Below, one piece after another: positions 6,589-7,282 of a stretch of 64,000 nt of DNA (positions are counted from its first letter, which is position 1; each line of letters opens with the position of its first letter). The stretch is taken from assembly GCF_988242995.1 (NCBI RefSeq), contig NZ_OZ547043.1; one strand, 5' to 3'. The notes beneath the pieces were generated by a model. The model made no database searches and was not told the origin of the DNA. It saw nothing but the letters and a program-made list of their open reading frames with translations. A program made the translations under genes and the position numbers.

Positions 6589-6711
6589 AGAGTAAAACTC
6601 ATTAGAATTACCAGAATTCGGCCAATGCATTGCAAAAATGACATACAAAGAGAGATGTGCGCAGGCACTTAGCCGCGAGGGGCATGGCGAAGCCATACAG
6701 AAAGCACCAGC

Positions 6712-6760
6712 ATTCAGAACTCCTGTGAAAGCGGCATAGTGCCGCCTGCTCAGGAGTTTT
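6712..6760 (+). terminator. stem-loop with a 3' T-run, possible terminator of the islet gene
   Basis: AACTCCTG ... CAGGAGTT inverted repeat enclosing GCGGCATAGTGCCGC, followed by TTTT. Confidence 0.4.
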
Positions 6761-7145
6761 ACTATGACCCGTAATCGTGCTTAACGTTACCATCCTATGA
6801 TGCGATTAAAAAAACTCACCGTCGCGCTGATGATTGACGTCAATGCTATCGGATGATACCGGGGTGTTCCGGAAGGAATTCCTTGTTTCCCGAACTGTTA
6901 CCAACAAAATTATAACGATGAGCAAGTAAAGACCGGTTGGTGGCAGCATTGAACGGTCTGTGATGGATGATTAATTTCACCTTAAATCCTGGTGCTGTTA
7001 GGATGCTGACGTTTTTCGGGTACACCATTCAGATTATGCAAATGAAGACCCAATCAAAAAATAAATATCCCTGAATATAATATATTTATAGCACCCATAT
7101 CTCATCCTGGGCGATAACCAAACCATTTTTGATTAACAAATGAAA

Positions 7146-7195
7146 CAACTGCAACGTTCTTATTATTTCTGGAAAACGTCTCGCAAAAACAAAAC
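7146..7195 (+). repeat. direct repeat copy 1, upstream of yiiE
   Basis: AACTGCAACGTT...TCTGGAAAACGTCTCGCAAAA; near-identical motif recurs at 7588..7635. Confidence 0.6.
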
Positions 7196-7282
7196 GACAT
7201 GCAAAAATCCGCTTTTTTTAAATGATTTTTCGGCGTAATTTTCGCACATACATTAATGAGTAATATATGTAAGGTGGTGGTA

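Follow-up and report, generated by a model that had tools for sequence, protein, structure and literature searches.

A layered scar of deleted neighbour genes with an inherited terminator-like hairpin as the probable content of the gap between an islet gene and yiiE in Escherichia coli

Intrinsic terminators of Escherichia coli consist of a stable, GC-containing stem-loop followed by U residues and located shortly 3' of a stop codon on the coding strand, and small RNAs (sRNAs) derived from 3' untranslated regions (UTRs), such as CpxQ and SroC, would be expected to share such a hairpin with the parent mRNA. Integron attC sites, with the core consensus RYYYAAC...GTTRRRY, form imperfect nested inverted repeats 3' of a module, and pseudogene scars in chromosomal hotspots are characterized by nested deletions with shared junctions and lineage-specific lesions. 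Against this background, we analyzed a seemingly empty gap of about 670 bases (6589-7255) that separates yiiE from the open reading frame (ORF) which a preliminary description called the islet gene, within a window of 64,000 nucleotides (nt) of the E. coli chromosome (RefSeq assembly GCF_988242995.1, contig NZ_OZ547043.1). The preliminary description considered the gap to be a structured stretch that could contain an sRNA, a small toxin or a decayed gene remnant. The present computational analysis detected no hidden gene or sRNA in the gap, which is an ordinary one, made of leftovers of deleted neighbour genes, an inherited terminator-like hairpin, and the promoter and leader of yiiE. As an explanation of the whole, we consider it likely that the fabY-fdhE interval is a variable, AT-rich hotspot in which toxin-antitoxin (TA) modules have settled repeatedly, and that the stretch is a layered scar within it.

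A megablast comparison of the stretch with 5,426 complete E. coli genomes matched some portion of it in 5,375, with the coverage falling into classes of 100%, 90%, 55%, 45% and 24%, and the layers were derived from representatives of each coverage class combined with mapping of BLAST and alignment breakpoints. The AT-rich segment extends from the end of fabY (yiiD), at 4359, to fdhE and has a GC content of 35-48% vs 53-57% in the flanks. Consistent with the preliminary description, which saw no convincing ORF in the gap, no gene is annotated within 6589-7255 in the four islet-type RefSeq genomes sampled. The right boundary has to be shifted: yiiE had been taken to start at 7256, but the RefSeq start is the ATG at 7283, 27 nt further 3', and therefore the untranslated stretch is really 6589-7282. 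The features in and next to its left part are as follows.

4735 or 4774 (alternative starts) to 6588: islet ORF
6589-6654, plus strand: islet-specific 3' tail, the 66 nt after the islet stop, found only in islet-bearing genomes
6655-6679, plus strand: relic of the last 25-26 nt of nadS, from alignment to the intact nadS of locus L001 and of ST131 (locus L005)
6716-6760, plus strand: nested, terminator-like hairpin, from RNA folding and inverted-repeat search
6752-6766, plus strand: Shine-Dalgarno sequence AGGAG (6752-6756) in the 3' arm of the hairpin and, 7 nt on, the ATG of ORF70 (6764)
6764-6816, plus strand: N-terminal relic of ORF70, the first ~17 codons (tblastn against the ST131 ORF70 protein, E 7e-07)
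6797-6856, plus strand: 19-codon ORF, MMRLKKLTVALMIDVNAIG, spanning the junction of ORF70 and ORF92
6815-6817: junction of a 390-bp deletion, from BLAST breakpoints and alignment (ST131 locus L005 positions 3165-3554 are missing)
6817-6922, plus strand: C-terminal relic of ORF92 (~35 codons), interrupted by a stop and a frameshift (two tblastn matches in different frames, E 3e-05 and 4e-05)
6886: right endpoint of the 2,047-bp deletion (window 4839-6885) behind the K-12/B-type spacer, from breakpoint mapping

The layers become apparent from the comparison with genomes that lack the islet. In two such genomes, Ecol_881 and ST131, the homology to the window ends at 4359 and restarts at 6655, and in O157, N3 and A1_136 the 66-nt tail (6589-6654) directly continues the islet. 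Between fabY and yiiE, the islet-less genomes encode an alpha/beta hydrolase (on the minus strand), a 103-aa RelE-like protein (a weak match to PF06296) and NadS, a helix-turn-helix (HTH) antitoxin (NCBIfam NF041265, E 1.2e-16) that is the partner of a RelE-like toxin; this pair is intact in about half of E. coli. Two small genes, ORF70 (WP_000197774.1) and ORF92 (WP_001296612.1), are annotated 3' of the hairpin in ST131, EV36 and A1_136, and in ST131 and EV36 the annotated ORF70 begins at the ATG homologous to that at 6764. In the window, the former TAG stop of nadS has become GAG at 6677-6679, and the nadS portion is the most diverged piece of the 111-nt unit that it forms together with the hairpin (21 of 26 positions identical). 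The beginning of ORF70 is disabled by TAA at codon 7 (6782-6784), one of three states found among the alleles; in the others, 1 nt is deleted or the 30-aa fusion is intact. Stop, frameshift and fusion represent three independent lesions of the relic. The 390-bp deletion junction lies directly 3' of an A7 tract (6808-6814) and is identical in all 13 sampled alleles of the deleted form. Judging from the synteny with the intact genes and the disabling lesions, the segment 6655-6922 holds the relics of nadS, ORF70 and ORF92, so that of the three contents originally proposed for the gap, the decayed remnant is the one that has been located. The locus thus resembles the pseudogene scars of other hotspots in its nested deletions with shared junctions and its lineage-specific lesions. 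The hairpin and the 25-nt relic correspond to the 3' end of a toxin-first type II TA operon (HigB/HigA-like; here, RelE-like and NadS); compared to such operons, the window lacks both toxin and antitoxin, and nothing but the hairpin and the final 25 nt of nadS is left.

The status of the two small genes themselves is less clear-cut. The ORF70 protein family comprises only 31 clusters, without a match to any known family, and its seemingly divergent homologs detected in protein searches proved to be encoded by the same DNA, frameshifted at homopolymers, and added no diversity. For both ORF70 and ORF92, the differences are too few for the ratio of nonsynonymous to synonymous substitution rates to be informative, and none of the islet, hydrolase, RelE-like, ORF70 and ORF92 proteins matched a defence system in PADLOC. 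The A-tract of ORF70 contains 8 A in ST131 (L005 3111-3323) and 7 A in A1_136 (L101, reverse complement of 5182-5403); depending on this difference, the product is either 70 aa long and rich in Arg and Cys or 73 aa long with a hydrophobic, transmembrane (TM)-like stretch, both frames being open to almost the same end, and the tract may be phase-variable.

The deletion that joined ORF70 to ORF92 also accounts for the 19-codon ORF at 6797-6856, which the preliminary description placed exactly and presented as a hydrophobic peptide. Read across the junction, the frame gives MTRNRA, a stop, RYHPMMRLKK and then, beyond the junction, LTVALMIDVNAIG and a stop. A small toxic or membrane peptide could be suspected here given that the locus is a TA hotspot and that the ORF is open in 13 of the 13 sampled deletion-type alleles. 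We nevertheless regard such a peptide as extremely unlikely: the ORF exists only through the 390-bp deletion that fused two frames, it is not preceded by a Shine-Dalgarno sequence upstream of 6797, and the Prokaryotic Genome Annotation Pipeline (PGAP) annotates nothing at 6797-6856. All five substitutions among the 13 alleles are nonsynonymous and radical (T/I, A/E, L/P, V/D, I/S), with none synonymous. The hydrophobic character did not hold up either, as R, K, K and D are among the residues of the peptide and none of its apolar runs is long enough for a TM segment, and its size is not conspicuous, with 104 ORFs of at least 20 aa within 6 kb of the window, so that ORFs of such length are expected by chance. 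Because of the radical changes, the missing Shine-Dalgarno sequence and the three states of the ORF70 start, the ORF is best classified, on comparative grounds, as a fusion scar in decay, and not as a peptide gene or a source of a functional peptide.

The most prominent element of the gap is the hairpin at 6716-6760. As originally noted, it is a nested inverted repeat, with arms at 6718-6736 and 6740-6758, in which the outer stem AGAACUCCUG...CAGGAGUUUU encloses the inner stem GCGGCA-UAG-UGCCGC. A 71-nt RNA containing the hairpin folds at -28 kcal/mol compared to a shuffle mean of -14.8 (z -4.54), and none of the 200 shuffled sequences is as stable. The hairpin is also the sole structured element of the stretch, contrary to the initial characterization of the entire gap as structured: the whole 667 nt give a z of -1.0 relative to shuffles, the part 3' of the hairpin (6770-7255) gives -0.4, and the yiiE leader is unstructured (z +1.6). 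No match to Rfam 15 covariance models was found in 6589-7255 on either strand with E-values up to 10; a scan of 4000-8000 at the same threshold returned four chance matches to eukaryotic long noncoding RNA and small nucleolar RNA models, all outside the gap.

The 111-nt unit of nadS tail plus hairpin is present in 3,368 of the 5,426 genomes, always at this locus, with a median of one copy per genome and a maximum of two, carried by 330 genomes. A dispersed repeat such as repetitive extragenic palindromes or bacterial interspersed mosaic elements (REP/BIME), enterobacterial repetitive intergenic consensus (ERIC) sequences or miniature inverted-repeat transposable elements (MITEs) was considered and ruled out on account of the limit of two copies per genome and the single locus. 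True plasmids and phages contain no copy, the matches in the plasmid set being mislabelled chromosomes only. An exact 16-mer scan with one genome per species detected the unit neither in K-12 nor in the representatives of other species; it gave 78 matches, all by chance, in unrelated taxa and none in Enterobacteriaceae. In every nadS-bearing genome examined, the hairpin directly follows nadS, 36 nt 3' of its stop codon in the H-type haplotype and on the same strand; in the window, it is located 128 nt 3' of the stop of the islet ORF, and in EDL933 it lies at about NZ_CP008957.1 4964988-4965031. Because it stands behind nadS in ~2,600 genomes that do not have the islet-adjacent arrangement, the hairpin is older than its islet context.

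Taken together with its position, the structure of the hairpin suggests that it is most likely the old terminator of the relE-like/nadS operon, which now serves as the default 3' end of the islet transcript. Under this model, the hairpin would have originally functioned as an intrinsic terminator and 3' stabilizer of the relE-like/nadS operon, and would probably also have kept the translation of ORF70 low by occluding its ribosome-binding site, because its 3' arm contains the ORF70 Shine-Dalgarno sequence. It would then have been retained when islet DNA replaced the hydrolase gene, the relE-like gene and most of nadS. As no strong stem-loop precedes it 3' of the islet ORF, it probably now ends the islet transcript, which it would also stabilize, and insulates yiiE, which has its own transcription start at 7082. 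The earlier suggestion that the repeat is the terminator of the islet gene is accordingly plausible only as a secondary, co-opted role of a hairpin that predates that context. With typical intrinsic terminators it shares the stable GC-containing stem-loop and the U residues shortly 3' of a stop on the coding strand, as well as an A-rich 5' flank that can pair with the U-tract. The terminator scan detected no other terminator-like site between the islet stop and yiiE. K-12, for which Term-seq tables list no 3' end at fabY, yiiD or yiiE, does not contain the hairpin.

Several observations weigh against this interpretation. The TTTT that had been reported after the repeat is indeed present, but the stem is followed by UUUUACUAU, that is, only four consecutive U and then ACUAU, and in the minimum-energy fold this UUUU pairs with AGAA; such a short U-tract argues for a leaky terminator. 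The hairpin is missed, in the window and in ST131 alike, by a simple consensus terminator scan with a minimum of 5 T in 8, owing to the interruptions of the stem and the run of just four U. Unlike typical intrinsic terminators, it has a long stem (45 nt), broken by 1x1 and 3x3 internal loops. The evolution of the hairpin, assessed for covariation on E. coli alleles only, there being no representative of another species with the flanking 16-mer, does not add support. The 7 distinct alleles from 20 loci all fold at -21 to -28 kcal/mol and 97.5% of the cells in their alignment are paired, with 12 of the 17 pairs never varying; however, not a single pair has changed on both sides, so no covariation across strains was found, and the alleles are not more stable than versions of the window allele with as many random changes (fraction of simulations at least as stable, 0.05-0.65). 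Three pairs show a one-sided change to GU and two include cells that lose pairing. Structural selection is not demonstrated, because there are no compensatory pairs and the stability is like that of random mutants. Finally, the copies of the I and H types are 97% identical from 6694 rightward and ~75% identical left of it (6655-6693), a step that a recombination breakpoint explains as well as constraint does, and the order of events is inferred from a few dozen genomes and is blurred by recombination between haplotypes.

The same data bear on the possibility that the hairpin forms the 3' terminus of an sRNA, either stand-alone or 3' UTR-derived, that would be processed from the nadS or islet mRNA and maintained by selection. 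The strong terminal stem-loop followed by U's would fit such an RNA, and so would the retention of the unit behind nadS, behind the islet gene and, in A1_136, between the islet and the hydrolase gene. Of the ~10 mutational events, only one falls in the nearly invariant outer 10-bp stem, which also includes the Shine-Dalgarno sequence and the U-run; this low count is a suggestive but weak hint of constraint. We consider the sRNA quite improbable, given the lack of an Rfam match, of compensatory changes, of alleles stabler than random mutants, of a plus-strand promoter-like site upstream, and of the unit in K-12 or the other species representatives in the 16-mer scan; moreover, low divergence is not confined to the hairpin but continues well to its right, as in a recombination tract. 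Compared to CpxQ and SroC, the hairpin has no Rfam match, no covariation and no conservation beyond E. coli. A broader version, in which ~70 nt comprising a single-stranded lead and the hairpin (6694-6760) would be a selected RNA element, for example, a 3' UTR-derived regulatory or stabilizing RNA, placed behind nadS, the SopB-like islet gene and the islet-hydrolase junction, with the direct repeats also driving gain and loss of the module, appears very improbable.

A role in translation is a further possibility. In the window as well as in ST131, AGGAG (6752-6756) lies wholly within the stem, 7 nt before the ATG of ORF70, and the weak U-tract speaks against efficient termination; hence, in the intact haplotype, the hairpin might act mainly by sequestering the ORF70 Shine-Dalgarno sequence and, in the window, where ORF70 is destroyed, be a functionless relic instead of a terminator. 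This we regard as unlikely in such an exclusive form, considering that translational control is compatible with a terminator role and that the gene status of ORF70 is itself uncertain (31 clusters, no family match, the A7/A8 frame switch).

The genomes fall into five locus types: H in full, H with the 390-bp deletion, I, a double I+H type, and K-12. The full islet ORF is present in 1,061 of the 5,426 genomes and ~2,000 more contain only its first ~100 nt. The comparison of gene orders suggests, and we infer, that the islet haplotype arose when, in an arrangement of the nadS type, the hydrolase and relE-like genes and most of nadS gave way to islet DNA (4360-6654). The two haplotypes diverge by ~25% in 6655-6693 and by 3% or less from 6694 rightward, and the step at 6693/6694 fits a recombination breakpoint. 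The junction of the 390-bp deletion is found on both haplotypes and therefore recombination has moved the deletion between them. The unit allele of the window and N3 (6655-6758) looks chimeric, with the left half similar to copy 1 of A1_136 and the right half, including TTTTAC, similar to copy 2, pointing to recombination inside the unit.

In 330 genomes, the unit forms direct repeats around the hydrolase/relE-like/nadS module. In A1_136 (L101, NZ_CP040390.1 5099000-5107700), the order is fabY, islet gene, copy 1, hydrolase, relE-like, nadS, copy 2, ORF70, ORF92, yiiE and yiiF. These direct repeats, and the nested inverted repeat, which is similar in size to attC, lies at the 3' end of a module and superficially resembles the R and L boxes, raise the possibility that the ~105-nt unit is an attC-like recombination site or cassette boundary that mobilizes the module. 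We find this scarcely credible: the flanks TCAGAAC...GTTTTAC/G do not fit RYYYAAC and GTTRRRY, the annotated neighbours include no integrase, and no genome has more than two copies, all unlike integron attC sites. Furthermore, copy 1 of A1_136 stops exactly at CAGGAGTT, entering the hydrolase stop codon via a GGAGTT microhomology, and A1_136 lacks the 52-nt fabY-hydrolase spacer, with a separate terminator, that the islet-less haplotype possesses. Because of this junction and the missing spacer, A1_136 is most simply read as a product of recombination between the two haplotypes, which relied on homology at one junction and on microhomology at the other, and not as their common ancestor; a single event of homology-anchored illegitimate recombination would suffice. 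The combination of GGAGTT microhomology and a homologous anchor in the A1_136-type recombinant matches known homology-facilitated illegitimate recombination.

K-12 represents a further step. In K-12 and B strains, the upstream flank of the islet and the ~22 first islet codons, which RefSeq labels as an incomplete hypothetical protein, are joined directly to 6886, and from this position rightward K-12 is also homologous to the window. Breakpoint mapping shows that the 852-bp fabY-yiiE spacer of K-12 is a further deletion derivative, which has lost 2,047 bp (window 4839-6885). Compared to other deletion scars, there is nothing unusual about the series of which this 'intergenic' region is the end product.

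At the left end of the locus, two alternative sequences follow the fabY stop (~4360-4735), each with its own terminator hairpin: GAGAGGGGCGGTGCTGCCTCTCTC occurs with the islet and in K-12, and AAAAGGTTTTC..GAAAACCTTTT occurs with the hydrolase gene. A sigma-S peak has been reported by genomic SELEX (systematic evolution of ligands by exponential enrichment) in the yiiD>yiiE spacer of K-12 (PMC5493296); coordinate conversion places it ~110 bp after fabY, upstream of the islet ORF stub.

The product of the islet gene shows no similarity in Pfam, NCBIfam, PADLOC and PDB sequence searches. It contains the motif GCKSAKDRT (encoded at ~6265-6291), and its CX5R P-loop is identical to the CKSAKDRT of inositol polyphosphate 4-phosphatases (PMC3248162). 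An exhaustive HMMER search with this protein yielded 52 cluster representatives, the distant, near full-length ones being 26-39% identical, and C499, D504 and R505 are invariant in the alignment. The AlphaFold model (pLDDT 83, pTM 0.85) has as its best match Salmonella SopB (8jzl_A, E 1.8e-7), followed by Legionella SidP and SidF, the IP4P domain of P-Rex1, and Fig4. Judging by the predicted structure, the protein looks like an unannotated SopB/IpgD-like phosphoinositide phosphatase encoded by about 20% of E. coli. An uninterrupted ORF of 604 aa is found in the window, N3, MEI003, CS5L, A1_136 and AR Bank 0349, and among the genomes compared, a nonsense codon at position 298 was found only in those of O157:H7. 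Even in strains with the intact ORF, PGAP labels it 'pseudo hypothetical' plus 'transposase', apparently an artefact of annotation carried over from the O157 models, in which the ORF is split.

The right third of the stretch, which was overlooked in the preliminary description, is the yiiE promoter and the 201-nt leader, mapped experimentally in the compilation cited below. The features of this part and of the adjacent region are as follows.

6923-7081, plus strand: AT-rich spacer and yiiE promoter region
7082-7282, plus strand: yiiE 5' leader, 201 nt, from Cappable-seq starts projected to the window
7144-7207, plus strand: repeat block, from repeat search (families D1 and D2)
7283-7501, plus strand: yiiE, encoding a 72-aa ribbon-helix-helix (RHH) protein (RefSeq; Pfam RHH_1, E 1.1e-11)
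7716-8645, minus strand: fdhE

The Cappable-seq compilation, in sheet 3 of its Table S5, lists yiiE transcription starts 201 and 117 nt upstream of the start codon in K-12, and 201 and 41 nt upstream in the enterohaemorrhagic (EHEC) strain EDL933, which is of the islet type (PMC10469882). Projected onto the window, which is possible because O157 and the window align without indels in this region, the starts tabulated on that sheet at -201, -117 and -41 correspond to 7082, 7166 and 7242. A perfect TATAAT is located at 7076-7081, directly 5' of the start at 7082 that the sheet gives for both K-12 and EHEC; it is not the -10 element of this start because it is too close. The tabulated start at -117 likewise abuts a TTATTA. 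A sigma-70 consensus scan found no plus-strand site in the promoter region. Overexpression of SlyA increases yiiE expression 2.5-fold, and yiiE is listed as bound by H-NS (PMC5797941) and as a SlyA target in SELEX (PMC6134199); these data fit an AT-rich, silenced promoter without a consensus sigma-70 match.

Within this region, conservation peaks at 7186-7260, and a weak inverted repeat at 6930-6959 is the least conserved block. The repeat block includes a 45-nt unit (7144-7188) that recurs at 7583-7627, upstream of the yiiF position, and tandem 17-mers AAAACGNCNNGCAAAAA at 7173-7189 and 7191-7207; these repeats are plausible candidate operators for an RHH protein. The gene yiiE looks like a tandem paralogue of yiiF, and both resemble orphaned RHH antitoxins. 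In the window, yiiF is deleted (7502-7715; junction 7628-7652), with 25 nt in place of ~453 bp of N3 and O157, an arrangement shared with Ecol_881, and all that is left of the yiiF locus is the repeat upstream of it. A VapC toxin gene is located 3' of a yiiF-like RHH gene in AR Bank 0349 and in SC455, a strain from soil, and for this reason yiiF of K-12 reads as an orphaned VapB-type antitoxin. Pairs of HigB with an HTH protein and of YiiF (VapB-like) with VapC are also found at this locus in other strains.

The value of this base-by-base explanation of a long 'empty' spacer is mainly in annotation. It also calls for caution, in that short ORFs and hairpins beside islets can be scars and inherited terminators as opposed to new sRNAs or toxins. 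For E. coli, the analysis documents the fabY-fdhE interval as a TA hotspot and presents the fabY-yiiE region of K-12 as the end product of nested deletions, with an ancestral arrangement that would have included the hydrolase, a TA pair and two small genes, and a sister haplotype of that arrangement that would have carried the SopB-like gene.

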